Below are positions 1,931 through 60,590 of a stretch of DNA of 64,000 nucleotides, piece by piece. Source of the stretch: Vicinamibacterales bacterium (GTDB lineage Bacteria > Acidobacteriota > Vicinamibacteria > Vicinamibacterales > SCN-69-37); NCBI GenBank assembly GCA_035633215.1, contig DASQFI010000045.1:153068-217067 (forward strand), written 5' to 3'. How positions within the stretch are numbered: position 1 is the first letter of the stretch; each line of letters opens with the position of its first letter. The notes beneath the pieces were generated by a model. It was given only the letters and a program-made list of their open reading frames with translations, ran no database searches and had not been told where the DNA came from. Made by a program: the position numbers and the translations under genes.

Positions 1931-4900
1931 TCACGCCTTCAACATGACTGATCCGGACCCGCACAACGCCTCGACGTCACGGACGAAATGATCGCTCGGC
2001 TTGATTCGGCGGGCCGTCGCCGCGCGGACGACCAGGTGGTCGTCGCCGCCGTTGACTTCGACGACGAATGACACCCGCCGGTCGCCGGGATACCGCTCGA
2101 GCACGTCGGCCAGCTCGCGCATGACGTCGCGTCCGAGCCCGCGCCCGGCCAGGTGGATCTGCACCTCGCGGATGGCGCGGTCGCGGACGACGTCGAGCGG
2201 CGTGATCTCCGACACGATCAACCGGCTCGATTCCTCGTCGCGCTCGTATTTGCCCCGGACGAGCAGCATCGCGTCGTCCACGACGAGTGATCCGTGCTTG
2301 CCGAACGCCTCGGGGAAGACGACCGCCTCGACCTTCGCCGCCTCGTCCTCGAGGCTGAACACCGCCATGCGATCGCCACGCTTCGTCTTGAGATGACGCA
2401 CGCCGGTCGCGACGCCGCCAATCGAACAATCCGCTTCCGGCTGCGTGAGATCGGCGAGCCGCCGCGCGCCCGCGATCGCGAGCGCTTCCGCGTACCGCTG
2501 CAGCGGATGCCCGGTGATGTAGAGCCCGAGCGCTTCCTTCTCGAACGCCAGCGCCTCGGTCTCCGTCCAGGCGCGCACGGGCGCGAGCGCGGCCACGTCG
2601 TCGTGCGTGTTCATGGGGCCGTCGCCGCCACCGAAGAGCTGCGACTGGCCCTGCTCGCGGTCCTTCTGCTGGCGGCTGCCGTGGTCGAGGATGCGGTCCA
2701 GCCCCGCGATGAGCCGCGGCCGCCACGCCAGATAGCCTTCCCGCCCGTCGGGCGCGAGCGAATCGAAGGCGCCGGCCTTGATCAGGCTTTCGACCACCTT
2801 CTTGTTCACGAGGCGCAAATCGATGTGCTCGGAGAGCGAGAACAGTGAATCGATCTTGCCGCCGAGCGCTTTCCGGGTCTCGAGAATCGACCGGATGGCG
2901 CCTTCCCCGGCGCCCTTGACCGCCCCCAGCCCGAACCGGATGCCGTCTGGCTGCACCACGAATGCCAGCTCGCTCATGTTGATGTCGGGCGGCAGCACGG
3001 GCACGCTCAACTCGCGGCATTCCGCGAGGTAGAGCGCGACCTTGTCCGAGTTCTGTGACTCGATAGTGAGGAGCGCGGCCATGAAATGGCGCGGATAGTT
3101 GGCCTTGAGGTAGGCCGTCTGGTACGCGAGCAGCGCATAGGCCGCCGAGTGCGACTTCGGGAAGCCGTAGCCGGCGAAGAACTCGATGTACTCGAAGATC
3201 TTCGACGCTTTCTTGTCGGAGATGCCGCGCGCGCGGCACCCCTTGATGAAGGTGGACCGCTGCGCCTGCATCTTGGCGGCGTCCTTCTTCCCCATCGCGC
3301 GGCGCAGCTCGTCGGCCTGGCCGAGCGTGAAGCCGGCCAGCTCGCTCGCCAGGCGCATGACCTGTTCCTGGTAGGCGATGACGCCGTAGGTCTCCTTGAC
3401 GACCGGCTCCATCTGCGGGAGCTCGTACTTGACCTCGACGCGGCCATGCTTGCGCGCGATGTAATCGTCGACGACTCCCCCGCGCAGCGGCCCCGGCCGG
3501 TAGAGCGCGTTCAACGCGATGAGATCCTCGAGGCACTGCGGCCGCGCCTTGCGAAGCGTGTCGCGCATGCCCGAGCTCTCGAACTGGAAGACGCCGTAGG
3601 TCTGCCCCGTCTGAAAGATCTGATACGTCTTCTGATCGTCCAGCGGCAGCTGTTCGAGGCTGATGACGTCGCCGGTCGTCTCGTGAATGTGCTTGACCGC
3701 ATCGTCGAGCAGCGTGAGCGTGCTCAGGCCGAGAAAATCGATCTTGAGCAGACCGATGCGATCGATCTCCTTCATCGCCCACTGCGTCGTGATTTCGCCG
3801 TCGTCCTTCTGGCTTCGATAGAGCGGCACGAACTCGGTCAGCGGTTTCGGCGCAATGACGACGCCGGCGGCGTGGACGGAGGCATGACGCGTGATGCCTT
3901 CGAGACGCCGCGCCACTTCGAGGATCTGGCGGACGCGCTCGTCGCGCTGTTCCAGCTCGGCGAGCGCAGGATTCTCGTTGACCGCGCGATCGAGCGTCAT
4001 ATCCACCTGGTTCGGAATGAGCTTCGCGACCCGGTCGACGTCGCTGATCGGCATCTCCATGACCCGGCCGACGTCGCGGACCACCGCGCGGGCCTTCAAG
4101 GTGCCGAAGGTGATGATCTGCGCGACGCTGTCACGGCCGTACTTCTCGGCGACGTAGTTGATGACTTCTCCCCGCCGCCGCTCGCAGAAATCGATGTCGA
4201 TGTCCGGCAGCGTCACCCGCTCCGGATTCAAGAAACGTTCGAAGTAGAGGTCGAAGTGGAGCGGATCGATGTCGGTGATTCGGAGGGAATAGGCGACGAG
4301 GCTCCCGGCTGACGACCCGCGTCCCGGTCCGACCGGGATGCCCCGCTCGCGCGCATAGCGGATGAAGTCCCAGACAATCAGGAAATAGCTGAGGTACTTC
4401 ATCTGCTTGATGAGGCCCATTTCGTACGCCAGCCGGGTGTGGTACTCAGACAGCGGGCGGCGAAGCTGACCGGCGGCGTCAAGGGCGCGCAGCCGAACGA
4501 GCCGGTCCTCGAATCCCGCGCGGACCACCTTTTCGAAGTACGACTCGAGACTGAACCCGTCCGGCACCTGGAAGTCCGGCAGGTGCGCCTCGCCCTTGGG
4601 CAGCGTCACGTTGCAGCGTTCCGCGATGTGCAGCGTGTTCGAAAGTGCCTCGGGCCAGTCGCCGAACACGGCGCGCATCTCGCCGGCCGTTTTCAGGAAG
4701 AACTGATCGCCGTGATACCGGAGCCGCTTCTCGTCGCTGACGTTCTTTCCCGTGCCGATGCACAGCAGCACGTCGTGCGGATGCCGGTCGGTCTGCCGCA
4801 GGTAGTGGACGTCGTTCGTGCAGACGAGCGGCAGTCCGAGGTCGCGCGCGATCGGCAACAGTCCGGTGTTCACGACGCGCTGCTCGTCGATGCCCTGGTC

Positions 4901-5428
4901 CTGCATCTCGAGGAAGAAGTTCCCCGGTCCGAGAATGTCGCGGAAGGTCGCCGCCGCCTCCAGCGCCTTGCGTGGCTGGTCGTTCCGAATCCCGGTCGCC
5001 ACCTCGCCCTTCAGGCAGCTACTCAGGCCGATAAGGCCCGCCGAGTGTTTGGCGAGCAGCGCCTTGTCGATCCGCGGCCGGTAGTAGAACCCGTCCATGT
5101 ATCCCGCCGAGACCAGGCGAATCAGGTTGTGAAAGCCTTCATGGGTCTCCGAAAGCAGGACGAGATGATTGGCCGTCTCTCCCGGCTGCCCCGATCGGTC
5201 GGTCCGGCTTCCAGGCGCGACGTAGACCTCGCAGCCGAGGATCGGCTTGATTCCGCGCTTACGCGCCTCGTCATGAAAGGTGACCGCCGAGAACAGGTTC
5301 CCATGTTCGGTGACCGCCACGGCGGGCATGCCCAGTTCGGACACGCGATCCAGGAGCTCGCCCATCCGGCAGGCGCCGTCGAGCAGCGAGAACTCCGTGT
5401 GCAGATGCAAATGAACGAATTCGCTCAT
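1931..5428 (-). CDS. dnaE: DNA polymerase III alpha subunit
   Basis: PHP domain FVHLHLHTEFSLLDG, GPGRGSSAGS, PDIDIDF, KIDFLGL, C-terminal OB fold. Start set at MSEFVH (ATG 5428); no intein visible. Confidence 0.97.
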   Translation of the reverse strand: MSEFVHLHLHTEFSLLDGACRMGELLDRVSELGMPAVAVTEHGNLFSAVTFHDEARKRGIKPILGCEVYVAPGSRTDRSGQPGETANHLVLLSETHEGFHNLIRLVSAGYMDGFYYRPRIDKALLAKHSAGLIGLSSCLKGEVATGIRNDQPRKALEAAATFRDILGPGNFFLEMQDQGIDEQRVVNTGLLPIARDLGLPLVCTNDVHYLRQTDRHPHDVLLCIGTGKNVSDEKRLRYHGDQFFLKTAGEMRAVFGDWPEALSNTLHIAERCNVTLPKGEAHLPDFQVPDGFSLESYFEKVVRAGFEDRLVRLRALDAAGQLRRPLSEYHTRLAYEMGLIKQMKYLSYFLIVWDFIRYARERGIPVGPGRGSSAGSLVAYSLRITDIDPLHFDLYFERFLNPERVTLPDIDIDFCERRRGEVINYVAEKYGRDSVAQIITFGTLKARAVVRDVGRVMEMPISDVDRVAKLIPNQVDMTLDRAVNENPALAELEQRDERVRQILEVARRLEGITRHASVHAAGVVIAPKPLTEFVPLYRSQKDDGEITTQWAMKEIDRIGLLKIDFLGLSTLTLLDDAVKHIHETTGDVISLEQLPLDDQKTYQIFQTGQTYGVFQFESSGMRDTLRKARPQCLEDLIALNALYRPGPLRGGVVDDYIARKHGRVEVKYELPQMEPVVKETYGVIAYQEQVMRLASELAGFTLGQADELRRAMGKKDAAKMQAQRSTFIKGCRARGISDKKASKIFEYIEFFAGYGFPKSHSAAYALLAYQTAYLKANYPRHFMAALLTIESQNSDKVALYLAECRELSVPVLPPDINMSELAFVVQPDGIRFGLGAVKGAGEGAIRSILETRKALGGKIDSLFSLSEHIDLRLVNKKVVESLIKAGAFDSLAPDGREGYLAWRPRLIAGLDRILDHGSRQQKDREQGQSQLFGGGDGPMNTHDDVAALAPVRAWTETEALAFEKEALGLYITGHPLQRYAEALAIAGARRLADLTQPEADCSIGGVATGVRHLKTKRGDRMAVFSLEDEAAKVEAVVFPEAFGKHGSLVVDDAMLLVRGKYERDEESSRLIVSEITPLDVVRDRAIREVQIHLAGRGLGRDVMRELADVLERYPGDRRVSFVVEVNGGDDHLVVRAATARRIKPSDHFVRDVEALCGSGSVMLKA

Positions 5429-5441
5429 CCCGCAAGCCCCT

Positions 5442-6977
5442 TCATTCCCACTCGATCGTCGCCGGTGGCTTGGAGCTGATGTCATAGACGACGCGGTTGA
5501 TGCCGCGCACCTCGTTGACGATGCGTGACGACATCGCCGCGAGCAGATCTGGCGGCAGCCGCGCCCAGTCGGCCGTCATGCCGTCGCGGCTTTCGACCGC
5601 GCGAATCGCGATCGTGTACTCGTACGTCCGGCCATCCCCCATCACGCCCACGCTCTGCACCGGCAAAAGCACCGCGAAGGACTGCCAGAGCCGCCGGTAC
5701 CAGCCGGACGTGCGAATCTCGTCGGCCACGACCGCATCGGCGCGCCGGACCAGATCCAACCGCTCACGAGTGATGGGGCCCACGACGCGCACCGCCAGCC
5801 CCGGTCCCGGAAACGGCTGTCGCCAAACGAACTCATCGTCGAGCCCCAGCGTCGTGCCGACGGCGCGGACCTCATCCTTGAAGAGCGCCCGAAGCGGTTC
5901 GATCAACTTGAATCGCATGCGCTCGGGCAGGCCGCCGACGTTGTGGTGACTCTTGATGGCCGCCGACGGGCCGACGACCGAGACGCTCTCGATGACGTCC
6001 GGGTAGAGCGTGCCCTGGGCGAGAAAGTCGAAGGTGCCGAGCTCGGCGGCCCGTTTCTCGAACACGTCGATGAAGGCGGCGCCGATGATTTTGCGCTTCT
6101 TTTCCGGATCCACGACGTCCTTCAGCCGCTCGAGAAAGAGATCCGTGGCGTCGACGAACTCGAGCGGCAGGCCCAGGCGCTCGAATCGGGCGCGCACCTG
6201 GGCGGCCTCGTTGAGACGAAGCAGGCCGTTGTCCACGAAGATGCACGTCAGCCGATCGCCGATGGCGCGGTGCAGGAGCAGCGCGGCGACCGTGGAGTCC
6301 ACGCCGCCGGACAGCCCGCACACGACGCGTCCGTCGCCGACAGCCGTGCGCATGCGTGCGACGCTCTCGTCGACGAACGACGCCATGGTCCAGTCGCCCC
6401 GGCACCCGCAGATCTCGAACGCGAAGTTGCGAAGAATCTGCTCGCCCCGCTCCGTGTGCGCGACTTCCGGGTGGAACAGCAAGCCGTACAGGCGGCGCGT
6501 GGCGTCCTGCATCGCCGCGACCGGTGCATTGGCCGACGTCGCGATGATCTCGAATCCGGCCGGCGGCGCCGCGACAAAATCGCCATGACTGGCCCAGACT
6601 CTCAACGAGTCGGGCACGTCATCGAAGAGCGGCGCGCCGTCGATCAGCGTGACGACGGCATGGCCGTACTCGCGGCTCGGCGCATGCGTCACCTGCCCGC
6701 CGAGCGCATCGGTCATGAGCTGCATGCCGTAGCAGATGCCGAGTGTCGGGGTGCCCAGCTTCAACACAGCCGGGTCAGGTTTGGGCGCACCCGGCTCGGA
6801 CACGCTGCGCGGTCCGCCCGAGAGAATGATGCCGACGGGCGCGCGCTTCGAGATCTCCGACACCGGCGTCTGCGGCGGGAGGATCTCCGAGTAGACCGAC
6901 AGCTCACGCAAGCGGCGCGCAATCAGCTGCGTGTACTGCGAGCCGAAATCAAGGACGACGATCGTTTGATGTGTCAC
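5442..6977 (-). CDS. guaA: GMP synthase (glutamine-hydrolysing)
   Basis: [56 protein letters not shown]. Likely GTG start at 6977; the longer track ORF is an antisense extension. Confidence 0.97.
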
Positions 6978-7041
6978 CGCAGACCGGTACGGAAGCAACT
7001 GCGAGGCCAGGTGCCTCTTCGGAATCTCGCTATTATAAGGC

Positions 7042-8178
7042 GTGGCCACTGCCGCGACCACGATATGTTGTGGTGTCGCAATCGTCGTGAGTCTTTTCCT
7101 ACCCCAGACACCACCGCCGGTTGAGCAAGTCGTGCCGCCGGTTCCCGTCGCGCCGGCCGCCGCCAAGCCGGCCGTGCCCGCCGTCACATACGAATCGGCG
7201 TGGCAGAAGACGATCGAATCGGACAGCGCGCTCCAAATCGCCGTTGCCGGACGCCGCGTGATCGTCTCGGGCGCGAAATCCGCGCTGATGGCGATCGCAC
7301 CCGCCGACGGGACCGAAGCGTGGGCGAAAGAGCTGCCGTCGTCGGTGCGCGTCGCCTCGGGCGATGGACTCGTCTTCGTGGCGTCCGGGGAACGTTTGCA
7401 CGCGTTGGACGAGACGAACGGCAACGAAAAATGGACCGCACGCATCGCCGCTGGCGCGACGATCGGTCCGACCTGGGCCAAGGGATTCGTCGTCTGTTCG
7501 AGCGGCCCGGAGTTGGTTGGCATTCGCAGCGCCGATGGGAGCGAAGTCTGGCGCCGGCACGTCGGCGTGGATACGGCGCTGCCGATCGTGATCGAGGGCG
7601 GACGCGTGTTCGCGGGCCTCGCCAACAAGACAATCGTGGTGCTCGATCTTGTCACCGGCGCGGTCGAGCGGCAGATGCTCCTCAGTGCGAAGCCGAATGA
7701 ACTCGTTGCAGCCGGCGACCGGTTCTATTTCGGCGCCGACAATGGGGTCGTGTACGCCTATCGAGCTAATAGCGAGGATTCGAGCTGGGAATGGCCCATC
7801 GGCGTGAACGCTGTCGGCGCGCCCGCCATCGACGAGCGCTGCGTCTATGTCGCGTTCATGGACAACTCGGTCCGGGCGTACCGGCGCGGGTCTGGAAGCC
7901 ATTGCTGGTCGCCGCGCAGCGTGACCGGCCGGCCGGCCGCCGGTCCAATGCTCGCGGGGACCCACCTGGTGGTGCCGCTGACGACGGGCGAGCTAGTCAT
8001 CCTCGAGGCGAAGGACGGCCGGCCGGTCCGTCGTCCTGACCCGCCCACGACGCCGGCCGTGCAGCTGTCAGGAGCGACGCTTCAGGCGATTGCGGCGTCG
8101 CCCGGCGTCTCGTCGGTCTACCTGGTTTCAATTGGAGGCGATCAACGGCGGGTGCTGACCGCGTGGCGGCGGAAGTGA
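7042..8178 (+). CDS. Exported PQQ-like/BamB-like beta-propeller protein
   Basis: Signal-like N-terminus, Pro-rich linker, repeated 'A..A.DG.E.W' propeller blades. Confidence 0.75.
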
Positions 8179-8737
8179 TGTCATTTCCCCCACCGCCGCT
8201 GCCAGCCTCGCCACACCTTCTTCAATTCTGTCCGGCGGCGGCGCGGAGAACGAGAGCCTCAGGTATTGTTTCCCGGACCCGTCTACGAAAAAGGGCGCTG
8301 GTAATGCGCGCGCAGGTCCGACATTGCGAAACGCGCTGATGGCGCCCGTATACGACGACAGCTCGAGCAGGGCGACGTCTCCCGGATCGAGCAGCACGCG
8401 CGCAATGAGGTCCAGGCCCTGTTGCGAGCCGGTCGTCACGACCGTCCGCTCGACGGAAGACTGGATGCCCCGCGCGCGCATCAGCTCGACGACGGCGTTG
8501 CGGAGCGGCATGTAGCCGCGCGTCGGGTCGTATTGGAGCACCGGTCGGTCCGCCCCGCCGAGCCAGACCGCGCGCGATTTCGGCGAACGCCTGCCAGGGG
8601 AACACGTCTTCGGCGGGATACCCTGGCGCGAGCGAGACCATGTCTTTCGCGCCGGCGAGGACCGCGCCCATCTGCCGGATCGCGGAGTCGCGCATGCACC
8701 CGGCCGCTTGCGAAAAAAACCTGTCGTGGTCGGTCAT
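8128..8737 (-). pseudogene. PLP-dependent aminotransferase (class I/MocR-LysN-like), frameshifted and internally deleted
   Basis: MTDHDRFF...SAIRQM...SLAPGYP, +1 frameshift near 8563, then LQYDPTRGY...TTGSQQGLDL...AFRNVG joined directly to C-terminal FFVDGSG..LRLSFS. The PLP-lysine region is missing. Confidence 0.8.
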
Positions 8738-48727: not shown

Positions 48728-48962
48728 TGCACACCTCACTTCCGGGGGCCCGGCTCCAAACACTGCAAAAATCATGTCAGGACGGTCGTTCGGCCAAGTC
48801 ACGCCAGGCCAATCGCTTAGCGATTGACGGCCGGGACCGAGGCTCGTCCCGGTTGTAGATCTTGCGTGTCGACGTGCCACGACGAACCGTTCCTCGACCA
48901 CACCTCGCCAGGTGACCGTGCTCGCGGTCGCAGTACAATGCGCCGGCTTCAGAGCTCGAACC

Positions 48963-51689
48963 ATGCCGCTGGCCGCCGGAACGCGACTCGGTGCGTATGA
49001 AGTGATCGACGCCCTCGGTGCTGGTGGGATGGGCGAGGTCTACCGTGCCCGGGATACCAAGCTCGGCCGCAGCGTCGCCATCAAAGTCATTTCCGAAGCA
49101 TGCCTGTTTGACTCGGATCACGTCGCGCGATTCGATCGCGAAGCCAAAGTCCTCGCCTCGCTCAACCATCCGCGCATCGCGACGCTGTACGGCATGGAGC
49201 AATCGGCCGGCCGTCATTTCCTGGTGATGGAGCTGGTCGAAGGCGAGACGCTGGCCGACCGGCTGCGGCGCGGCGCGATGCCGGTGGCTGACGCGCTCGG
49301 CGTCGCGCAGCAGATCGCGGAGGCGCTCGAAGCTGCGCACGAACGTGGCGTGATTCATCGCGATCTGAAGCCCGCGAACGTGAAGGTCACGCCCGACGAG
49401 CGGGTGAAAGTCCTCGACTTCGGCCTGGCGAAAGCGATCGCGCGCGAGCAGGCGTCGGTCGACACGAACTCCCCGACGCTCAGCATGCGGGCGACGCAAA
49501 TAGGCGTCATCCTCGGCACAGCCGCCTACATGTCGCCGGAGCAGGCGAAGGGCGCCCCGGTCGATCACCGGAGCGACATATTCTCGTTCGGGGTCGTCCT
49601 CTTCGAAATGCTGGCGGGACGGCGGCCGTTTCAGGGCGATACAGCAGCCGATGTGCTCGCATCCGTGCTCGTTCGCGACGCGGATGTGGACTCGCTGTCG
49701 CCCGCACTGAGCCCTCGCCTCCGCGATCTGCTTCGTCGCTGCCTGGAGAAGCAGCCGAAACGACGCTGGCAGGCCATCGGGGACGTGCGAGCGGAGATAG
49801 AGACGATTGCCGCGACGCCCCAGGCGCCGGTTCCATCTGTTCAACCGATAGGCGCGACGCGGCCGTTGTGGAAGCGCGTCGTTCCGTTCATCGGCGTCGC
49901 TGCGCTGGCTTCAGGTCTCACATACCTCGCGGTCTGGCGCCTTCGGCCGGCGGCGTCGCGGCCAGCGGTGGTCAGATTCTCGCTGACCATGTCGGGAGGG
50001 CAGAATTCTGCGGGAGGAGCCGGTCGACGGTTTCTCGCGATTTCCCCCGATGGCACTCGGATCGCTTATTTCTCGGTCGGTCGGCTGTTTCTCCGATCGC
50101 TCTCGGATTTGGAAGCGACCCCGATTCAAGGTGTGGAGACGGCCCAGCAATCGACCAGTCCCGCCTTTTCGCCGGACAGCCAGTCGATCGCCTATTGGGC
50201 CTCCGATCGAACGCTCAAGCGAATAGGCGTCGCAGGCGGCGCCGCGGTCACGATCTGTCCGCTCGCGACGAATCCAATGGGGTTGAGCTGGGATGCTGAC
50301 GGGATCGTCTTCACACAGGGACCACAAATCCTACGGGTTTCGGCGACCGGCGGTAATCCCGAGCTGCTCGTGACCTTCAAGTCGGACGAGTTGGTCGACA
50401 GTCCGCAAATGCTGCCAGATGGCCAGACGGTGCTGTTCACCTTGAATCCAGCCGCCCCCAGCCCCGACTCATGGGACCGAGCTGCCGTGGTCGTGCAGTC
50501 GTTGAAAACCGGTGAACGAAAGACACTCGTGTCGGGCGGCGCCGATGGCCGGTATCTCCCGACGGGCCATCTCATGTACGCCCTGGGCGGGACGCTGCTC
50601 GCGCTGCCGTTCGATCTTCGCCAGATGCGAACCACCGGTCAGCCGGTGCCAGTGGTCGAAGGCGTCAGGCGCGTCACCGGTGGGGCCAGTGGGGCGGCGC
50701 AGGTCACCTTTTCGAACACGGGGTCGCTTGTCTACGTTACCGGCCCGCCCGGCTCGGCGGCGACGCAGTTCGATCTCGCCTTTACGGATCGGAAAGGGAG
50801 CATTGAACCGCTGCGCCTTCCGTCGGCTTCATACGAGTACCCCCGTGTTTCTCCTGACGGGAAACAGATCGCGTTCGGCACGGAAGACAGCAAAGAGGCT
50901 GTCGTGTGGGTCTACGATCTGGCCGCCACGAAGGCGCTGCGCCGTCTGACGTTTGGTGGAAGGAACCGGTTTCCGGTGTGGTCTTCCGACGGGCAGCGGA
51001 TCGCCTTTCAGTCAGATCGAGAGGGCGATCTGGCGGTGTTCTGGCAGCGTGCCGACGGAAGCGGCGTGCCGGAGCGTTTGACAAAACCCGAACAAGGGAC
51101 CGCCCATGTTCCCGATTCGTGGTCACCAGTCGGTGATCCCCTGGCCGTCACGGTTGTCAAAGGCTCGAGCTTTTCGCTCGCGATGCACTCGGTGCGGGAA
51201 GGAAGAACCACCGAGTTCGACAGTGTGAAGTCGAGTGCGCTGCCGACAGCCATGTTTTCGCGAGACGGCCGATGGGTTGCCTACTCATCGTCGGAAGGTG
51301 GGACGGCGGGCACGCAGGTGTATGTGCAGCCGTTCCCGCCAACGGGCGCCAGGTATCAGATCTTCGCCAAGCCTGCCGACAATCCACATCATCCGCTCTG
51401 GTCGCCCGACGGCAAGGAACTCCTCTATGTCCCGCGCGTCGGCGCTTTTGAAGCGGTGAGCGTGATCACCGAGCCAACCCTGGCGTTCGGCAATCCCGCG
51501 CCGGTACCGAGGGTGTTTCCGACGGCAGCGCCAACGACTCCGAGGACGTTCGACATCACGCCGGCCGGCAAGATTGTCAGCGTGATCGTCAGCGGTCAAA
51601 CATCGACCGCCGCTGCGGACCGGCCCGTGCTCCACGTCGTGTTGAACTGGTTCGACGAACTGAACGCGCGAGTGCCTCCGGCACGGTGA
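48963..51689 (+). CDS. Hanks-type Ser/Thr kinase with TM helix and C-terminal PD40/TolB-like beta-propeller
   Basis: [32 protein letters not shown], one TM helix, repeated P..SPDG blades. Confidence 0.93.
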   Translation: MPLAAGTRLGAYEVIDALGAGGMGEVYRARDTKLGRSVAIKVISEACLFDSDHVARFDREAKVLASLNHPRIATLYGMEQSAGRHFLVMELVEGETLADRLRRGAMPVADALGVAQQIAEALEAAHERGVIHRDLKPANVKVTPDERVKVLDFGLAKAIAREQASVDTNSPTLSMRATQIGVILGTAAYMSPEQAKGAPVDHRSDIFSFGVVLFEMLAGRRPFQGDTAADVLASVLVRDADVDSLSPALSPRLRDLLRRCLEKQPKRRWQAIGDVRAEIETIAATPQAPVPSVQPIGATRPLWKRVVPFIGVAALASGLTYLAVWRLRPAASRPAVVRFSLTMSGGQNSAGGAGRRFLAISPDGTRIAYFSVGRLFLRSLSDLEATPIQGVETAQQSTSPAFSPDSQSIAYWASDRTLKRIGVAGGAAVTICPLATNPMGLSWDADGIVFTQGPQILRVSATGGNPELLVTFKSDELVDSPQMLPDGQTVLFTLNPAAPSPDSWDRAAVVVQSLKTGERKTLVSGGADGRYLPTGHLMYALGGTLLALPFDLRQMRTTGQPVPVVEGVRRVTGGASGAAQVTFSNTGSLVYVTGPPGSAATQFDLAFTDRKGSIEPLRLPSASYEYPRVSPDGKQIAFGTEDSKEAVVWVYDLAATKALRRLTFGGRNRFPVWSSDGQRIAFQSDREGDLAVFWQRADGSGVPERLTKPEQGTAHVPDSWSPVGDPLAVTVVKGSSFSLAMHSVREGRTTEFDSVKSSALPTAMFSRDGRWVAYSSSEGGTAGTQVYVQPFPPTGARYQIFAKPADNPHHPLWSPDGKELLYVPRVGAFEAVSVITEPTLAFGNPAPVPRVFPTAAPTTPRTFDITPAGKIVSVIVSGQTSTAAADRPVLHVVLNWFDELNARVPPAR

Positions 51690-51759: not shown

Positions 51760-54441
51760 ATGGCGCTGAATCCCGGCACTCGTCTCGGTGCGTACGAGAT
51801 CGTGGGTGCCATCGGCGCCGGCGGAATGGGCGAAGTCTACAAGGCGCGCGACGTCAGGCTCAACCGCGACGTCGCCGTCAAGCTCCTGCCCAACTCATTC
51901 GCCGGCGATTCCGACCGAATCACGCGATTCCAGCGGGAAGCGCAGGTGCTCGCCTCGCTCAACCATCCGAACATCGCGCAGGTCTACGACGTCGGACATC
52001 TCGACGCCGCTTCCTACCTCGTCATGGAGCTGGTCGACGGTGAGGATTTGTCCGCCGTCATTGCACGAGGCGCGATGGCCCCTTCCGAAGTCCTGCCGAT
52101 CGCGAAGCAGATGGCCCTGGCTCTCGAAGCGGCGCACGAGCAAGGCATCATCCATCGCGACTTGAAGCCGGCCAACATCAAGGTCCGTGCAGACGGCACC
52201 GTGAAGGTCTTGGATTTTGGGCTGGCCAAGGCTCTCGAGCCCGCAGCAGCAGCCAGCATTGACGCCATGAACTCCCCAACGCTGACGAACCGTGCCACCG
52301 AGGCCGGGATCATTCTGGGCACCGCGGCCTACATGGCGCCCGAACAGGCCAAGGGTCGGCCTGTCGACAAACGCGCGGACATCTGGGCATTCGGCTGCGT
52401 GCTTCACGAAATGCTGACTGGGCGGCGCGCGTTTCACGCCCAGTCGGTCGCCGAAACCCTCGGGTTGATTTTCGCGCGCGACGCGAGCGTGCTCGTGAAC
52501 AGCCTGCCGCCCGGAACTCCGGCGGCGCTTCGTTCGCTGATCGCGCGTTGCCTCGTCAAGGATCCGCGCGAGCGATTGCGCGACGTTGGCGATGGACGCC
52601 AGCTCATCGACGATGCAATCGCCGGACGAGGCGAGCCGGTCACAACCGAGCCAACCACAGATCGTAGAGTCGCGTGGTTCAGACGTGTCAGTTTCGCCGG
52701 CCTCCTCGCACTCGTGGCGATCGCGGCGTCAGCTTCGTTCGCCACGTGGCTGGTGACACGACCGGCGGTCGTGCCCACACCGCACATGGAGTTTTCGGTC
52801 CTTGTCCCGACCGAGGCGCCGGTCCGTCGAAACACGGGAGTGGGAGTCGCCATCTCTCCCAACGGCCGCTTCCTCACATACGTTGCCGAACCGCTGGGCG
52901 GTAGAGCGACGGTTCTCTACCTCAGGCGGCTGGACACTTTGGGCGTCAAGCCCATTGAGGGCACCTCAGGTGCGTTCGCGCCCTTCTTCTCTCCAGACAG
53001 CCGCTGGATTGGGTTCTTCACCGACCAGCATGTCATGCGCGTGCCTGTGGCCGGCGGCACGCCGATGCGAGTCACCGACAAGGGTCGCTTCTCGCGCGCG
53101 GCGTGGATGGGCAACGACACCATTGTGCTGGGCACGAGCCAGGCGTTCCGGCCCGGCGCGCTGGCCACGGTGCCGGCGACGGGCGGCACGCCGACGGACC
53201 TCACCACGCTCGGCGCGGGCGAACTGATTCACCAACTTCCGCATCCGCTCCCTGATGGCCGTCACCTTCTTTTCAGCGTGCACGGCGAGAGCGGCGCACA
53301 GCTCGCCGTGACGGAAGCCGGGACCCGCACGCATCGACTGCTGGGCCTTGTTGGCAGCGATGTCCGATACGTCGAACCAGGCTCCCTGATCTTTGCCCGG
53401 GGCACCGCCATGTTCGAGGCGCCGTTCGACCTCGGACGGCTGCAAGTGACTGGACCTGAGACCGGAATCCTCCCGGGCGCGGACGTGTTCGATTTCGGTC
53501 TCGGCATTTCGATTGGCCTCTTCGACATCGATCGGGTCGGCAATATCGCGTACGTTCCCACTGCGACGTCACGAACGAGCCGGCTGATATGGATGGACGC
53601 TTCGGGCCGGCAGTTTCCCATCGGCCTCGAGCCCGCCCGCTACTCCCGTCCGAGAATTTCCCGTGACGGGAGCCGCTTCGTCGTCAGCGTTGTTGGCGAC
53701 GGGATGAGTCAGATCCGTGTGGTGGACATTAAACGGGGGTTGCCCCTCGACCTGGAAACACAGGGATCCGACCCCATCTGGGCGCCGGACGGCACGATCA
53801 CGTTTGCCGGCTCGACCCGACGCGGTCCGGTTGAGGTCGGGCGATTCCTGGCCCGGACGCCCGTCGACACAGGTGCGCCACCCGCAACATTGCTCCAATC
53901 GGACGACCGAGTGTTCATACCCGAGGATTGGGCACCGAATGGCAGCCGATTGCTCTTCTCGTCGAGTTCCCGCCTCGGGCGCCGCGGTCTGGTGGATCGC
54001 AACCTCGAGGTGCTCGTGCCGGGGGCGCCCGCCAAACCTCTCGTCGACTCGCCCGCCGACGAGTCCAACGGCCGGATTTCACCGGACGGGAAGTGGCTTG
54101 CGTATCAGGCGACGTCGTCGGGACGGTCGCGGATTTACGTCCGGCCATTCGACAGACCGGGCGGTACGCAGACCGTGTCCGGTGAGGGTGGGACCAGTCC
54201 AGTCTGGGCTCGCGACGGCGCCGCGCTGTTCTTCGTCGAGGGCGGGATGTTGATGAGGGCGCCCATCGCGGTCTCGCCGTTTGCCATCGGCCACGCGACG
54301 GCCCTCTTCCCGCTACCTGGATCGACCGAAGCCTTCGACGTTGCGCCTGACGGCCGCTTTGTCATCCTGCTCGACAGCGCGGTTGCCGCCGACGAGATCC
54401 GCGTTGTGCTGGGATGGCCCCGCGGCATCCGGGCACGCTGA
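51760..54441 (+). CDS. Second Hanks-type Ser/Thr kinase with TM helix and beta-propeller
   Basis: [38 protein letters not shown], propeller repeats. Confidence 0.93.
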   Translation: MALNPGTRLGAYEIVGAIGAGGMGEVYKARDVRLNRDVAVKLLPNSFAGDSDRITRFQREAQVLASLNHPNIAQVYDVGHLDAASYLVMELVDGEDLSAVIARGAMAPSEVLPIAKQMALALEAAHEQGIIHRDLKPANIKVRADGTVKVLDFGLAKALEPAAAASIDAMNSPTLTNRATEAGIILGTAAYMAPEQAKGRPVDKRADIWAFGCVLHEMLTGRRAFHAQSVAETLGLIFARDASVLVNSLPPGTPAALRSLIARCLVKDPRERLRDVGDGRQLIDDAIAGRGEPVTTEPTTDRRVAWFRRVSFAGLLALVAIAASASFATWLVTRPAVVPTPHMEFSVLVPTEAPVRRNTGVGVAISPNGRFLTYVAEPLGGRATVLYLRRLDTLGVKPIEGTSGAFAPFFSPDSRWIGFFTDQHVMRVPVAGGTPMRVTDKGRFSRAAWMGNDTIVLGTSQAFRPGALATVPATGGTPTDLTTLGAGELIHQLPHPLPDGRHLLFSVHGESGAQLAVTEAGTRTHRLLGLVGSDVRYVEPGSLIFARGTAMFEAPFDLGRLQVTGPETGILPGADVFDFGLGISIGLFDIDRVGNIAYVPTATSRTSRLIWMDASGRQFPIGLEPARYSRPRISRDGSRFVVSVVGDGMSQIRVVDIKRGLPLDLETQGSDPIWAPDGTITFAGSTRRGPVEVGRFLARTPVDTGAPPATLLQSDDRVFIPEDWAPNGSRLLFSSSSRLGRRGLVDRNLEVLVPGAPAKPLVDSPADESNGRISPDGKWLAYQATSSGRSRIYVRPFDRPGGTQTVSGEGGTSPVWARDGAALFFVEGGMLMRAPIAVSPFAIGHATALFPLPGSTEAFDVAPDGRFVILLDSAVAADEIRVVLGWPRGIRAR

Positions 54442-54475: not shown

Positions 54476-54525
54476 TGTTACCTATGTCTCCTGAATGAAC
54501 TGTCACCCATGTGACCGGAATGAAC
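54476..54525. mobile_element. IS481-like terminal sequence (solo end), two 25-bp tandem units
   Basis: TGTTACCTATGTCTCCTGAATGAAC / TGTCACCCATGTGACCGGAATGAAC (20/25 identical). Resemblance to IS481-family ends is from memory; no transposase nearby. Confidence 0.45.
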
Positions 54526-54534
54526 CGTTTGAAG

Positions 54535-54609
54535 TGGTCGGGGCGAGTGGATTTGAACCCGCCTTCGCCTAGGCTCCGGCGGGCAAGCCACCGACCCCTC
54601 GGTCCCGAA
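54535..54609 (-). other. 3' fragment of tRNA-Pro(CGG), putative att site, split by a 30-nt insertion
   Basis: Removing 54560-54589 gives TTCGGGA-CCGAG-GGGTC-GGTGG-TTCAAAT-CCACT-CGCCCCG-A-CCA; tRNA similarity stops exactly at the anticodon loop. Confidence 0.85.
54560..54589. repeat. 30-nt REP-like insert in the T-arm of the tRNA fragment
   Basis: CGCCTTCGCCTAGGCTCCGGCGGGCAAGCC interrupts otherwise contiguous tRNA sequence. Confidence 0.6.
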
Positions 54610-54691
54610 GCGGCCAGGAATTGCGGGTCCTGAACGACTAACACGCGTCTTTCCGTGCCTTCCATTGGTCCCGTCGCGCCCCGTTGGACGC

Positions 54692-55195: not shown

Positions 55196-58100
55196 ATGTC
55201 CGCAGAACGAGAAACGGCCAGATCGCTTGAAGAAGCGCTTCGCGACGCTCTGGAGTCATTCTTCCTTGCCGACCGCGGCACACTCCAAGCCGAGACCTAT
55301 CAGACCATTTTCATAGGGAAGGGCGCTCGAAAGGGGCGAGAGATCGCTGATGACCTTACGAAGCGTGTATCCGCTGACGAATTAGCCCAATACCTATACT
55401 TCAGCGTTGGTGGCGCCGACGGCTCGGAGGCTGCCTGGATCCTTGAAAACACACCAATCGCGTACGCCGTAATGGTTGACTACAGCCAGGCCGCATGTGA
55501 TCTCGCGCGAGTGAAGAGCCAATCCATATCGGCCAGCCTCGGTAAGTCATTCAAGACGATTTGCGGCGACGCCACGCAAAGGCTTGGGGAAGCCCTCGCG
55601 TTCAGTCGGGACTGGCGAACCCGTGGGTGTGTCAGCGGTATCGTCGTGTCCGCCCAGTCTGTCTTGCATGAACTGCCATTTCGTAGCCCCGGTTTCAAGA
55701 TGAGCACGTACTTTGGCCAGATCTTCGCCGGCTGGGCAAACGCGTTTCTATACTGCCGCGAGCCGTGCCAACCTCAGAACTGGCCCAGCCCGGTTCAGAT
55801 GAAACTCCGTGACCTGAGCGGCGGGACACTTGCAGGCGTAGCCCGGCTGATTAAGTCTCAGCTGAGTGGTTTCGCCGGCTCAATTACCGAGGTTCCTGAC
55901 GATTACGTAGAAATGGACGCCGCGCTCGCCCTGGAGACCCTGTTTAAGGTGTTGTACTTTTTGGACAGTGATTTTGAGTACGAGATGGGTGAGCGGCTAA
56001 CAAGCTTCGAACCTGAAGTTGTGAGAAACCAGCTTCAGATGTACCTGGGACCAAACAGCGTTCGCGTCGACTACATCATGAGTGACCACTTTGAGAGGGA
56101 GTATCGAAGATTGGTGGTCGGCGTGCGAGATCCAGCGACGGGCCAAGAGTTAGGCATGCCGAACTCATTCGTTCGCATCGTTGGTGAAAGAAAAGATCAC
56201 CCCGTAACGAAGGACGTGAGGAAGATTCGCGACACCACTAACCTCGGCTTCACTATAGACGCTGGAATGTTTCATGGTCGGGTTGATGAGCTGCGGCGCA
56301 TCCGCGAGTGGCTCAGCCAATCTCCACCCCGCGCCTGGTTGATTCGTGGTCTTGCTGGTCAGGGCAAAAGCGAGGTTGCCAGACGTTATGCAATCGACGC
56401 TGTGGCAAGCGTAAGCACTGACGTCATCGGGGTGAGCCTCTACCACTCTTCTGGCGTTGACGACGTGATCGAGAGGATTGCAGCACCGATCTTTGGAGCC
56501 ATACCGCAGCCTACGCAGGAGCGCGTCCGCCGGATACTGGAGTTCTGCCGCTCCAAGGAGCTGCTGTTAATCGTCGACGGTCTTGAGCGTGAACAGGACA
56601 CCCGGGATGGACCACCTGGTGCCGGGTCGGTTGCGCGTGGGCCGCTGCAGGATTTGTTGTATGGGCTGATGGGCCCGGAGAGTAAGGCGCGTTTGTTGCT
56701 CACGAGCCAGCTCGATGTGGTTGGTATAGATCCGCTCGGAAGGCTGAGAACTGAAATGCTCCTGCCGCTGTCTCCAACTGATGGAATAAATCTGCTGCGA
56801 GTACCTGGCGGCAAGGAGGCTGATGAACTGCTGAAAAGCGTCTCCGTTGCCCTCGAGGGACATCCTCTTAGCCTTACGGCAGCTCAGAGAATCATTCGCG
56901 CGTTTGGTGCGGAGGACTTGCTCGGCTTGGTCGCCAAGGTCTCGGGTGACGCGAAGGTTCGGCGGATCCTGCGTCGATACAGAGATTCGTTGTCCCGCGA
57001 GGCTTTGACATTGGTTCGCGTTGTGTCAGCTTGTGCCGGCTCGATTTCGGACGCGACCATGCAAATGGTTTTGACCACTGGCTTGACGGCGCCATTGAAC
57101 AAGGCGTCTTTCGACAGTGCCAAGAAGGAATGTGAGGGTGTGCTTTGGAACGATGAGCGGGGCCGATTGGACGTTCACCCGATCGTTCGCGCGGTTTTTC
57201 AAGAAGAGTGGCTCGAGTCCCAGCAGAAGCAAGCGCGGCGGGTCCATAAGAAACTCGCGGAGTTATTTGAGCGCCATGCAAATGAAGCCCTCAAGCGACC
57301 AAATCCAACCTCGGCAGAACTGGAGCCTGTTCTGGGTGCTATGCATCATCGCCTTAGCCGAGGAGAGGTTCTCGCGGCAAGTCTCATGTTTTGGCGAATG
57401 ATGAAAGCTGGCGGAAATTTCCATATCGTGCACACCTTGGGCGTTTGGAGCTTTCTTCGTGATGCGGGCCTGTTGTTTTTGCGAGATAGAGATCCGGACC
57501 AACTTGCCCGCGATTTAGGGCCATCGGGAGCCTGCCCGCTTCTTTCGAACATCAGCGCTGCCGAACTTGCGCTGGCGCACCCGGAAAACGCGTTGGTGTG
57601 GGCCGGGCGGGCGCGAGACATTGCCGCAATGGCGGCGTCAAAGACCAAGCCGAAGGACGTCGCGACGAGGACCTCTCTCTGGTCTCTCGCACAGAACGCA
57701 GGCCAGATATGCATCAATGCTTACGGATGGTTGGGCCTACTTGGAGATGCGGAGACCGAGGCGGACCGAGGTGTGACCTTCGCGGAGAAGTCTCGGGCGA
57801 AGCCAGCGGTCACAACATTGGGTTCCGTCCCTGAGGTGCTCGTAGCTTGGAGGGCGGCGTTGTGGGCTGCGTCTTATGCCTACTCGGCTCGTGGGCGCCT
57901 CAAGCTGTGGAAAGGCCTGTATACTTCAGCTCTGGTGGATATGGAACACGCCGTCAATGTCTTTGCCGATGTATCCCAAGAGTTGAAGATGGAGTCGCTG
58001 GTTGCGTGGCAGGGAATGGACCACGTTGAGTGCCTTCTATTGCTTGATCGCGATAAGAACAGACGACGCGCACTAGAAGTGCATACTAAGAATCTGAAGT

Positions 58101-58540
58101 GGTGTGAGGAACGGAACCGCAGGGACCGTACGCTGCGCTTAGTGATTGAACGGGCAATGTTGGAGCGGCTAGACGGAAGGGATGGGAAGGCGTTTGACCT
58201 TCTCAGTTCTGTTCGTGACCAATTTGCCGTTGTTGAAGATGTGGAGTTACGTATTCATTTGCATCTTGAGCTTGCAAGGTGTCACTTGACTTTTGGCGGT
58301 CGAGAACAGGCCACGGCGGCTGCGCGAGTCGCACTCGACTTCGCTACGCGGAAAGGGCATGTGCTCGCTATGGCCGACGCCCTTGCGCTGGCAGCAGAGG
58401 CCGAACCCCAAGTGGAGGCCCGGCGGAACGACATCAGGGATCTTAGTGAAATCGTGGACGGTCGAGGTTACGGCCGTAGGAAAAGCGATCTCGAGATGCT
58501 AAGGGCCGGAAGGCGGCCGGTTTTGGAAATAGGAGTCTGA
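55196..58540 (+). CDS. STAND (NB-ARC-like) NTPase with N-terminal SAM-methyltransferase-like domain and C-terminal TPR-like region
   Basis: FHGR..EL, Walker A GLAGQGKS, Walker B LLIVDGLE, sensor-1 LLLTSQ, GHPLSL, LDVHPIVR. N-term YFSVGGADGSEA...VMVDYSQAACDLAR...ICGDA...VSAQSVLHEL...LYCREP. Confidence 0.8.
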   Translation: MSAERETARSLEEALRDALESFFLADRGTLQAETYQTIFIGKGARKGREIADDLTKRVSADELAQYLYFSVGGADGSEAAWILENTPIAYAVMVDYSQAACDLARVKSQSISASLGKSFKTICGDATQRLGEALAFSRDWRTRGCVSGIVVSAQSVLHELPFRSPGFKMSTYFGQIFAGWANAFLYCREPCQPQNWPSPVQMKLRDLSGGTLAGVARLIKSQLSGFAGSITEVPDDYVEMDAALALETLFKVLYFLDSDFEYEMGERLTSFEPEVVRNQLQMYLGPNSVRVDYIMSDHFEREYRRLVVGVRDPATGQELGMPNSFVRIVGERKDHPVTKDVRKIRDTTNLGFTIDAGMFHGRVDELRRIREWLSQSPPRAWLIRGLAGQGKSEVARRYAIDAVASVSTDVIGVSLYHSSGVDDVIERIAAPIFGAIPQPTQERVRRILEFCRSKELLLIVDGLEREQDTRDGPPGAGSVARGPLQDLLYGLMGPESKARLLLTSQLDVVGIDPLGRLRTEMLLPLSPTDGINLLRVPGGKEADELLKSVSVALEGHPLSLTAAQRIIRAFGAEDLLGLVAKVSGDAKVRRILRRYRDSLSREALTLVRVVSACAGSISDATMQMVLTTGLTAPLNKASFDSAKKECEGVLWNDERGRLDVHPIVRAVFQEEWLESQQKQARRVHKKLAELFERHANEALKRPNPTSAELEPVLGAMHHRLSRGEVLAASLMFWRMMKAGGNFHIVHTLGVWSFLRDAGLLFLRDRDPDQLARDLGPSGACPLLSNISAAELALAHPENALVWAGRARDIAAMAASKTKPKDVATRTSLWSLAQNAGQICINAYGWLGLLGDAETEADRGVTFAEKSRAKPAVTTLGSVPEVLVAWRAALWAASYAYSARGRLKLWKGLYTSALVDMEHAVNVFADVSQELKMESLVAWQGMDHVECLLLLDRDKNRRRALEVHTKNLKWCEERNRRDRTLRLVIERAMLERLDGRDGKAFDLLSSVRDQFAVVEDVELRIHLHLELARCHLTFGGREQATAAARVALDFATRKGHVLAMADALALAAEAEPQVEARRNDIRDLSEIVDGRGYGRRKSDLEMLRAGRRPVLEIGV

Positions 58541-58854: not shown

Positions 58855-60402
58855 GTAACAGTTCAGGGGGTCTGTACAAGTTGAGGCGATCGGCGTACCG
58901 TCTGACGCGTGACGGGCCCGAAATCGCGGCCACGCCGGCGGGACACCGAGGAACGCCTGAAGCAGGAGATTGAGCGGCTGCGCCGCGAACTCGCCGAGCG
59001 GGAACGGGAAGTGGCCGAGCAGGCCAAGCGGATCAAGGACCTCGAACACGAGCTCGCCCTGCACCAACAGAATTCCACCACGACCTCCAAGCCACCGTCC
59101 TCCGATGGGCTGGCCGGCCAGCAACGGATGCGCGGTCGCCGACAGAAGAGCCGGCGCCCGCGAGGCGCGCAACCGGGTCATCCGGGGCATTGCCGCCCGC
59201 TGGTCTCGCTCGATCGCGTCAACGTGACGGTCGACGTTCAGCCGACCGCGTGCCGCCAGTGCGCGCACGTGCTGCACGCGCGCGACGAGCGCGGGGACCC
59301 GCGCCGGCATCAAGTGACCGAGCTGCCGCCGATCGAGGCCCACATCACCGAATACCGCTGTCATCGACGCGTCTGTGCCGCCTGTGGCGCGACCACGCTG
59401 GCGGCGTTGCCCGACGAGGGGGTCGGGCAGTTTGGGCCGCAGCTCACGGCCCTGATTGCGTATCTGACGATGGTCTGTCGGATGCCGCGGCTGGTGGTGC
59501 AGCGGTTCCTCGAGGGCGTGCTGCAGATCCCGATCAGTCTGGGGAGCACCCAAGCGGCGTGGGAAGAAGCCAGTGCGGCGGTCGGCGCGCCCTATGCCGA
59601 GCTGGAAGCCGCGTTGCCGCAGGAACCGGTCGTCAACGCCGACGAGACCGGGCACCGGACCAACGGCGCCAAACGGTGGCTCTGGGTGTTCGTGGCCCAC
59701 ACGTTCGTCTTCTATCGGATTGCCGCGTCCCGCGGCTCCGAGGTGTTGCGGGCCGTACTGGGGGAGACATTCACCGGCGTGCTCGGCAGTGATCGCCTGC
59801 CCAGCTATCTCAAATGTGTGGCCGAGCAGCGCCAGCTGTGCTGGGCCCATCTGACGCGAAATCTTCTCAGCGCCCTCGACCTGGCGACGACACCCTCGGC
59901 GAAGCGCTTCTGCCGGGAGGCGCTCGTCCTCACGCGTCGCCTGTTTCGCTTGTGGCATCGCTACCGGGGCGATCCGACCATCCGGGGCGCACCGTTGACG
60001 CGGCCGGAATTGATCGCGAAAGCGCTCCCGATCGAGAAGGCCTTCTTCCGTCTCGGCGAGCGGTACCTCGACGCCGCCTCCGCCGACGTGCGCAATCTCG
60101 CCTACGCGCTATTCGTACACAACCAGCACTTCTTTACGTTCGTGCACAAGCCGGGGGTGGCGCCGACTAACAACGTCTCCGAACGCGCCCTCAGGACGGC
60201 GGTCCAATGGCGAAAGATCAGTTTCGGTACGCGCAGCGAGGAGGGTGAGCGAGCGGTCGAGCGACTGGCTGACCATCGCGCGCACGTGTCAACAGCAGGA
60301 ACTCAATGTCCTCGTCTACCTGACCGCGGCCATCGCCGCGTACCGCCGCCGTCACCCAGTCGCGTCCTTGCTACGCAGGCCGCAGACCCCCTGAACTGTT
60401 AC
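58855..60402 (+). mobile_element. IS66-family element (single-ORF type), 1548 bp
   Basis: Perfect 20-bp TIRs GTAACAGTTCAGGGGGTCTG (58855-58874; inverted at 60383-60402); 8-bp TSD TCTTAAAG (58847-58854 and 60403-60410). Confidence 0.95.
58909..60394 (+). CDS. tnpC: IS66 transposase TnpC with +1 frameshift near the C-terminus
   Basis: SSKPPSSD-like TTSKPPSSD, GAQPGHPG, zinc ribbon, NADETG, QLCWAHL.R, PTNNVSERALR. Conserved tail LTIARTCQQQELNVLVYL is in the +1 frame after 60267. Confidence 0.88.
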
Positions 60403-60590
60403 TCTTAAAGATTCCTTCAACACGACAGGCAGCTGCCCTCGGCCGACGAAGCCCAGATGCCAAGAACGAGGCGCTTGTCCAGGCTGTGCACATCCGCCGG
60501 TCAGATCTCGTTGAACTGGCCGTAACACATCCGGTGTGCGGCATCGGACAGCGGGCTCTGGATGCCGCCAATGGAACCGGATCGATCAGG

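Follow-up and report, generated by a model that had tools for sequence, protein, structure and literature searches.

The known outputs of bacterial NLR-like and abortive-infection systems are nucleases, enzymes degrading NAD+ or nucleotides, proteases and membrane disruptors. The described systems closest to the one considered here, Avs/AVAST (including its SIR2-STAND-TPR, or Avs5-like, form) and bNACHT, are encoded by single, island-borne and patchily distributed genes, and their products join an N-terminal enzymatic domain to a STAND NTPase carrying Walker A, Walker B, GxP and MHD-like motifs and to a C-terminal helical region. NTP-dependent conflict systems with swappable effectors (Kaur, Burroughs, Iyer, Aravind, eLife 2020, PMC7159879; 2021, PMC8195603) exhibit modular shuffling between fused and adjacent-gene forms and draw on nSTAND1/3/5, NACHT, NB-ARC, TPR, FGE-sulfatase, TIR, CHAT and EAD11 domains, and the main texts of both papers name no methyltransferase or methylase effector. 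Here we addressed a gene located at positions 55196-58540 (+) of a 64,000-nucleotide stretch of DNA (contig DASQFI010000045.1, positions 153,068 to 217,067; the window below) from a Vicinamibacterales bacterium, whose 6.19-Mb genome is a soil metagenome assembly. Its product, P0001, shares with Avs and bNACHT the features of architecture, motif content and distribution listed above and differs from them in having an NTPase too divergent for Pfam thresholds and, at the N-terminus, a class I methyltransferase fold. It is in our opinion probable, if only slightly so, that P0001 represents a one-protein NLR-like conflict system with an S-adenosylmethionine (SAM)-dependent enzyme as its output.

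The gene is complete, consisting of an open, uninterrupted frame of 1114 codons that encodes a protein of 1114 residues, with GGAG situated 8 nt 5′ of the ATG. It can be regarded as a real gene and not a chance open reading frame (ORF), since its N-terminal domain has 256 homologous cluster representatives. With GC content of 57.0% and 61.7% at third codon positions (GC3), compared to 64.5-66.3% and 74-85%, respectively, in the three upstream genes, it is compositionally foreign, and the same deviation is seen against the window at large (0.570 versus 0.668 in positions 1-54000). The motifs quoted in a preceding sequence-only reading of this DNA were all located at checked residue positions, namely YFSVGGADGSE at 68-78, VMVDYS at 92-97, ICGDA at 122-126, VSAQSVLHELPFRS at 151-164 and LYCREPC at 185-191 in the N-terminal part, and GLAGQGKS at 385-392, LLIVDGLE at 457-464, LLLTSQ at 500-505, GHPLSL at 555-560 and LDVHPIVR at 658-665 in the STAND part.

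Residues ~10-335 (55223-56200; all features of P0001 lie on the plus strand) form the module that is central to this work. An AlphaFold2 model of residues 1-345, built on an alignment (A1) of 22 stand-alone members of the module family, is confident (mean predicted local distance difference test, pLDDT, 89.8; predicted template modelling score, pTM, 0.87) and consists of an N-terminal helical cap (residues 11-63) and a helical lid surrounding a Rossmann-like core. Strands and helices alternate in this core, with strand 1 at residues 66-71, strand 2 at 90-95, strand 3 at 118-123, strand 4 at 148-154 and strand 5 at 182-190, and the expected landmarks fall in place: a glycine loop follows strand 1, an acidic residue ends strand 2, GDA comes after strand 3 and LHEL after strand 4. 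Among 402 matches that Foldseek comparison of the model with the PDB returned at E<=1e-3, the first 50 are without exception SAM methyltransferases. The first of them is PPM1/LCMT (1rjd; E 1.3e-7, template modelling (TM) score 0.40-0.42), followed in the top group by plantazolicin methyltransferase, TleD, Abd1, NovO and BioC, NovO reaching a target-normalised TM score of 0.61; in BFVD, a library of viral structures, the module is matched by viral cap and other methyltransferases. Thus, the class I methyltransferase strand order previously read from the letters is borne out by both the model and the uniform identity of its structural neighbours, and a non-Rossmann fold, the outcome that had been named as fatal to this assignment, did not occur. 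Compared to PPM1/LCMT (1rjd), NovO, BioC, the cap guanine-N7 methyltransferase Abd1 and PKMT1, the module has the same Rossmann-like core, with a glycine loop as motif I, a strand 2 that ends in an acidic residue, GD following strand 3 and a helix of LHE-type start following strand 4, and with LCMT it also has the helical lid in common. It differs from class I methyltransferases in the low identity (10-15%, TM score about 0.4), in the absence of any Pfam methyltransferase family at threshold and in the HELPxRS, REP, ExxxK and ExxE signatures, which are specific to the module family. No curated methyltransferase model exceeds its threshold on P0001, Pfam Methyltransf_25 being recorded at E 0.07 and 14.3 bits with the cut-off at 27, and 23 family members compared with Pfam gave sub-threshold matches to Spermine_synth and Methyltransf_12/25 only.

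The family was collected by exhaustive HMMER search with residues 1-345 among 1.84 billion cluster representatives, giving 256 representatives at E<=1e-3, of which 93 lie below E 1e-30, and residue conservation was counted in an alignment of 137 near-full-length members, which otherwise display 25-45% identity. The motif I loop G72-G-A-D-G-S-E78 after strand 1 (55409-55429) keeps G72 in 136, G73 in 132, G76 in 130, an acidic residue at position 75 in 112 and E/D78 in 134 of the 137 members. D95, terminating strand 2 at the predicted ribose-binding position of motif II (55478-55480), is acidic throughout (129 E, 8 D), and G124-D125-A126 after strand 3 (55565-55573), the predicted adenine-binding position of motif III, retains G in 134/137 and D in 131/137. 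Together with K46 of the N-terminal cap (133/137), residues G72, G73, G76, 95 and G124/D125 make up the cofactor-pocket set. The second conserved set is family-specific and comprises H158, E159 and R163 of the signature H158-E-L-P-x-R163-S164 after strand 4 (55667-55687), each found in all 137 sequences, R188-E189-P190 at the end of strand 5 (55757-55765; E189 136/137, P190 135/137), and E247, K251, E263, E266 and T269 of the lid helices (55934-56002), kept in 136, 135, 136, 136 and 124 members, respectively. About 15 near-invariant polar residues persist across every architecture in which the module occurs, and P0001 retains every family-invariant residue. These comparisons support a class I SAM-methyltransferase fold with a pocket that appears intact and conserved family-wide, and cofactor binding is predicted. 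Since conservation is so high despite 25-45% identity, it argues for catalysis over mere binding; it might be speculated that the many invariant acidic residues point to a basic or amine-containing substrate or to a bound metal.

The kind of enzyme can be narrowed to some extent. It had been proposed that P0001 is probably not a DNA methyltransferase, given the lack of DPPY, NPPF or PC motifs. Indeed, no [DNS]PP[YFWH] exists anywhere in P0001, which thus lacks DNA-methyltransferase motif IV and agrees with that proposal, but the statement does not hold literally for PC: this dipeptide is present at residues 190-191, after strand 5 instead of strand 4, with Cys kept in 78/137 members. Taking into account the missing motif IV and an architecture unlike that of restriction-modification or BREX systems, DNA methylation was rejected as an interpretation. 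Another direction is indicated by the cofactor loop. In a profile search of PDB sequences with the module, matches were confined to this loop and strand 2 (~53-55 residues), and the best of them are spermidine synthases (1inl, E 7.8e-5), with SIGGADGSE...LLE of the module aligned to IGGGDGG...LCE of the synthase; in line with this, Spermine_synth is the commonest weak Pfam match, recorded below threshold for 5/23 members. Spermidine synthases use decarboxylated SAM, and Asp of the aminopropyltransferase GGGDGG loop helps to select it. Because the module loop carries acidic D75 like GGGDGG, the identity of the cofactor is left between the two compounds and it may be SAM or a derivative such as decarboxylated SAM. 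Relatedness to aminopropyltransferases (1inl, 1uir) does not extend beyond the loop: they provide the best sequence-profile match, but whole-domain fold matches are methyltransferases, and SpeE-family enzymes carry acidic catalytic residues after strand 4, to which the module, having SxQAVLHE in this place, offers no counterpart. Membership in this class was rejected on these grounds. The same observations bear on a rival interpretation, according to which the module is an effector that consumes or converts the pool of SAM or decarboxylated SAM, or transfers another part of the cofactor, in parallel with NAD+ depletion by SIR2 and TIR effectors. It draws on the aminopropyltransferase matches of the loop, on acidic D75 in most members and on the position of the module, which stands where the nearest STAND relative (P0006, considered below) has a metabolite-depleting SIR2. 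Nevertheless, the catalytic residues expected after strand 4 are missing, the whole-domain structural matches are ordinary methyltransferases, and we know of no SAM hydrolase of class I methyltransferase fold acting as an immune effector, so that we consider this variant rather improbable.

The central part of P0001, residues ~359-690 (56270-57265), was assigned to STAND NTPases. GLAGQGKS (385-392) and LLIVDGLE (457-464) conform to the Walker A (GxxxxGK[ST]) and Walker B (hhhhD[GD]) patterns, and the GxP motif GHPLSL (555-560) and MHD-like His of DVHPIVR (659-665; VHP within 658-665) are kept as EGHPLAL and CHPVLR in P0006, a SIR2-STAND-TPR protein. Sensor-1 (500-505; window 56693-56710) deviates: LLLTSQ ends with Gln505, where STAND proteins have Arg, as does the aligned P0006 (VVLTSR); the replacement could mean nucleotide binding without efficient hydrolysis. 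Pfam NACHT matches residues 381-509 at E 5.9e-5 and 23.4 bits, below the 26.7 gathering cut-off, and AAA_22, AAA_16 and nSTAND5 score weaker still. The earlier ascription of all STAND hallmarks to this region is therefore valid for Walker A and B, GxP and the MHD-like motif and fails for the sensor-1 Arg and for NACHT at its cut-off. P0006 is the sole detectable relative of the region (27% identity over residues 359-742, E 3e-15); a word-indexed search with residues 350-760 and a search for the STAND part in all six frames of 400 genomes belonging to the phylum recovered only P0001 itself, and a search of PDB sequences with this part gave no match. P0006 has a SIR2 domain at its N-terminus, to which the models of LmuA (Lamassu) and ThsA (Thoeris) match, and TPR_1 and TPR_12 matches at its C-terminus, so that, as judged from the alignment, the methyltransferase-fold module of P0001 is a like-for-like swap for a defence-type SIR2 at the same position. 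For the C-terminal region (residues ~691-1114; 57266-58537), which is presumed to be a sensor and may be TPR/solenoid-like, helices are predicted only. The AlphaFold2 model of residues 345-1114 was obtained with a two-sequence alignment and is poor (pLDDT 45), displaying at this low confidence the alternating strand/helix pattern of an NTPase followed by continuous helices. Of the “helical/TPR-like” description given to the C-terminus before, the all-helical character is thus reproduced at pLDDT 45 and the TPR is not, Pfam TPR models having no match to P0001 at E<=1.

The surroundings of the module in other proteins are highly varied. The 153 best proteins comprise 79 with the module at the N-terminus, 39 in which it stands alone, 34 with it at the C-terminus and 1 with it in a central position, and 115 partner regions fall into >60 unrelated clusters. 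STAND partners include AAA_16/22, NACHT, NB-ARC, nSTAND1, nSTAND3 and nSTAND5, mostly accompanied by TPR, and the other partners are PRTase-CE, Schlafen AlbA_2 (SLFN_AlbA_2), TIR_2, FGE-sulfatase, PIG-L, DAC and a receiver domain. This repertoire, to which CHAT and EAD11 also belong, and the shuffling between fused and adjacent-gene forms correspond to those of the conflict systems of PMC7159879 and PMC8195603, many domains of which now have Pfam models, the module having none. The adjacent-gene form is exemplified by loci L001 and L002, in which a gene for a stand-alone module of 338 aa overlaps by 38 nt the 5′ start of an NB-ARC/AAA_22/TPR gene devoid of any other enzymatic domain. Since the STAND part of the L001 pair has no detectable relationship to that of P0001, the association of the module with STAND proteins arose more than once. 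One relative is cargo of a conjugative element, another adjoins a type IIG restriction-modification gene and YhcG, and a third adjoins CHAT-TPR-S and SIR2_2 proteins. Hosts represented in five loci found with a 9-sequence alignment are Flavobacteriaceae, Afipia, Duganella, Photobacterium and Acidobacteriota, a list bounded by the search pattern and giving no prevalence. A tblastn search with the module as query revealed no match among 72,556 plasmids or among 50,697 phages, which implies that the family is rare in replicons of cultured organisms, and the PHROGs scan of 23 members was negative as well.

The same set of architectures may be read differently, with the module serving as a ligand sensor, a regulator or a signal-generating enzyme that controls its fusion partner and not as the killing output. 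Its ligand could then be SAM, S-adenosylhomocysteine (SAH) or a molecule derived from nucleotides, or else it could synthesise a messenger from SAM, and in P0001 it would act together with the NTPase, the real effector being elsewhere or absent. Such a role is suggested by proteins in which the module is fused straight to predicted effectors without STAND, i.e., PRTase-CE (P0040, P0156, L019), Schlafen AlbA_2 (P0039) and TIR_2, and by five STAND-TPR proteins (P0002-4, P0007, P0008) with the module at the C-terminus, in the usual place of a sensor. The nearest relatives of the P0001 module (46-48% identity) are C-terminal modules of AAA_22-TPR proteins, P0002 sharing 47% identity over residues 11-334. 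Sensors of conflict systems usually diversify, however, whereas the module keeps its ~15 near-invariant polar residues, and both P0001 and the L001 gene pair would be left without any enzymatic output. An adaptor function can be considered in the same connection. Effector-associated domains (EADs) differ from the module, which is large (330 aa), enzyme-like and present once in the 6.19-Mb host genome; with a single copy and enzyme-like invariant residues, a homotypic adaptor of EAD type was rejected for this genome. Altogether we regard a sensory, regulatory or signal-generating role as unlikely, though it is the main rival of the interpretation that we favour.

Several loci display additional peculiarities. 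In an Afipia sp. metagenome-assembled genome (MAG; locus L018), the gene at 3984-6839 for a 951-aa fusion of the module with a NACHT-like NTPase overlaps by 10 nt a B12-binding radical-SAM gene (6830-8518, 562 aa), which would place another SAM-using enzyme in what seems to be one operon. In an Acidobacteriota MAG (L021:5890-7097) the module is split over two overlapping ORFs of 256 and 217 aa, the match covering residues 35-217, and probably represents a frameshifted or decaying copy. Genes for a glycine-zipper membrane protein and for a small uncharacterised protein are found near two stand-alone members, L003:561-1331 and L020:4638-5348, the first of which is additionally accompanied by an FGE-sulfatase/FtsX/ABC/vWA cluster; in these two unrelated loci this may be a recurring neighbourhood. 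Finally, two members of 383-384 aa (P0162, P0164) are annotated as proteins of two bdelloid rotifers, Rotaria magnacalcarata and Rotaria sp. Silwood2, the contigs being 77-116 kb long; horizontal transfer into rotifers or contamination of the assemblies could explain this.

As for the genomic position of the P0001 gene, the tRNA-Pro island supposed to contain it proved real, with the intact tRNA gene lying beyond the window. The proximal boundary is marked by an 85-nt 3′ fragment derived from tRNA-Pro(CGG) at 54528-54612 (-), called neither by ARAGORN nor by Rfam. Its sequence aligns in two segments, 97% and 96% identical, with the intact tRNA-Pro region (G000:C45:228403-228457), which has the same orientation. 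This complete tRNA-Pro(CGG) copy is situated 20.8 kb further along the contig, delimiting an island of ~21 kb, and the DNA between the two copies has GC content of 57-64%. The fragment is interrupted by a GC-rich hairpin of ~28-32 nt (CCCGCC...GGCGGG; window 54558-54589). Copies of this hairpin, 87-94% identical, occur on at least seven further contigs (C22, C10, C59, C58, C51, C4, C8) of the genome and resemble a small repeat family of REP/MITE type. The island carries IS66 and Mutator transposases, a gene with a pPIWI-associated nuclease domain and several metabolic genes (those of an OCD/PhyH/DUF2332 operon and genes for glycosyltransferase, SDR and ATP-grasp proteins), and no integrase could be recognised in it. 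The module is absent from 40 relatives of the host genome, two of the same genus included, and the P0001 gene, having low GC, a single copy and no counterpart in these relatives, is accessory and island-borne; the island itself is old or mosaic. Of the defence genes said to be common in it, the pPIWI-associated nuclease-domain gene is the one candidate, and apart from it this is not visibly a defence island. The gene in question (L028:6037-7212 (-)), outside the window, encodes a protein of 391 aa with pP_pnuc_1 (predicted pPIWI-associating nuclease, E 8.6e-18), and near it a 427-aa protein without Pfam match is encoded (L028:3575-4858 (-); both at about 220.6-224.2 kb of G000:C45); the pair possibly constitutes a defence module, of Argonaute type or another.

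Upstream of the P0001 gene, Ser/Thr kinase-beta-propeller genes occupy 48912-51689 and 51760-54441 of the window and belong to a very large paralogous family with about 50 DNA-level matches (63-76% identity) in each of two same-genus genomes. Synteny with these genomes was uninformative, owing to ~50 paralogues of the kinase and to the lack of a DNA match for the downstream operon. In one of them (G001:C8:369249-383998) five tRNA-Pro-like copies of ~70 nt, 92-94% identical to window 54525-54600, occur within 15 kb interspersed with Ser/Thr kinase paralogues, an arrangement that reflects either a hot spot of integration or a repeat of tRNA origin linked to the kinase cassettes.

Directly downstream of the P0001 gene lies a gene for an IS66-family transposase (58909-60408 (+); Pfam DDE_Tnp_IS66 E 1.3e-31, DUF6444). 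Its proximity, the Gln at sensor-1, the near lack of relatives for the STAND part and the example of the split L021 relative could be taken to mean that P0001 is an orphan, decaying and functionless remnant. Such decay is at odds with the unbroken frame of 1114 codons, the full retention of the family-invariant residues of the module and the intact Walker A, Walker B, GxP and MHD-like motifs, and we find it very improbable. The metabolic content of the island speaks for a different possibility, namely, that P0001 is a non-immune signal-transduction ATPase of MalT/AfsR type, which converts a signal from a metabolite or protein into methylation in the course of regulation or secondary metabolism and merely rides on the island. 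Regulators are numerous among STAND-TPR proteins, metabolic genes make up most of the remaining island and known defence genes are absent from the immediate vicinity. At the same time, no conserved biosynthetic partner gene was found across the module loci examined, as would befit such a role, and the extreme shuffling, patchy cross-phylum spread and fusions with TIR, PRTase-CE, Schlafen and nSTAND are characteristic of conflict systems, which makes a purely regulatory protein distinctly improbable.

In the conflict-system interpretation that we favour, the C-terminal helical region would sense a trigger, presumably an invader protein, and the central NTPase would bind nucleotide and drive oligomerisation, thereby unlocking or gathering the N-terminal enzymes of class I SAM-methyltransferase fold. 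Once activated, they might modify an abundant cellular or invader target or consume their own cofactor, and either event would stop the infection or the cell. The observations behind the model are the fold, the conservation throughout the family of the pocket and of a charged set of residues resembling an active site, the mobility of the module among STAND NTPases and other domains of conflict systems, its position equivalent to that of a defence-type SIR2 effector and the accessory character of the island-borne gene. The model infers that the enzyme binds SAM and transfers methyl groups, and it likewise infers the target, the trigger, activation through oligomerisation and the anti-phage effect. 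A number of circumstances weigh against it. Hardly any relatives can be detected for the STAND and C-terminal parts, and Gln replaces Arg at sensor-1; the sensor role of the C-terminus is presumed by position only, its model being unreliable. None of the direct neighbours of the gene belongs to defence, these being a transposase and metabolic genes, and the neighbourhood data on the family come from a handful of loci and are not a statistical enrichment. Fusions with effector-type domains (PRTase-CE, TIR, Schlafen) fit a role of sensor, regulator or signal generator at least as well. Assignment to defence is made by analogy, PADLOC-DB v2 giving 0 families at E<=1 for P0001, with no Avs or bNACHT model among them, and no Avs or bNACHT match for the fused and neighbouring relatives tested.

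Concerning novelty, the NCBIfam scan of P0001 was also without match, and the module is represented by no model in Pfam, NCBIfam, PADLOC or PHROGs. In the literature searched, to which most papers of subscription journals did not belong, no methyltransferase effector was found described for STAND, Avs or NLR systems, which is a weak negative. The remark in the sequence-only reading that such an output was not recognised as described agrees with both the database and the literature comparison, and we rate P0001 as an NLR-like STAND system with a predicted output domain not described in the literature searched. Being unannotated in Pfam, NCBIfam and PADLOC, the module makes the proteins bearing it invisible to defence-system finders.

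A broader proposal is that the module defines a new class of immune output, in which an NLR-like receptor controls a SAM-dependent enzyme that methylates an essential component of the host or invader or burns the SAM pool, and which behaves as a plug-in combined with NACHT, NB-ARC, nSTAND, PRTase-CE, TIR and Schlafen and apparently transferred to bdelloid rotifers; we put it forward tentatively, as possible rather than probable. The family would offer a defined and highly conserved candidate catalytic module, with its 256 cluster representatives and about 15 near-invariant residues. If the proposal is true, a trigger-gated enzyme of methyltransferase fold would add new chemistry to the outputs of bacterial immunity and would indicate that immunity can act through a new vulnerable target or through SAM metabolism.

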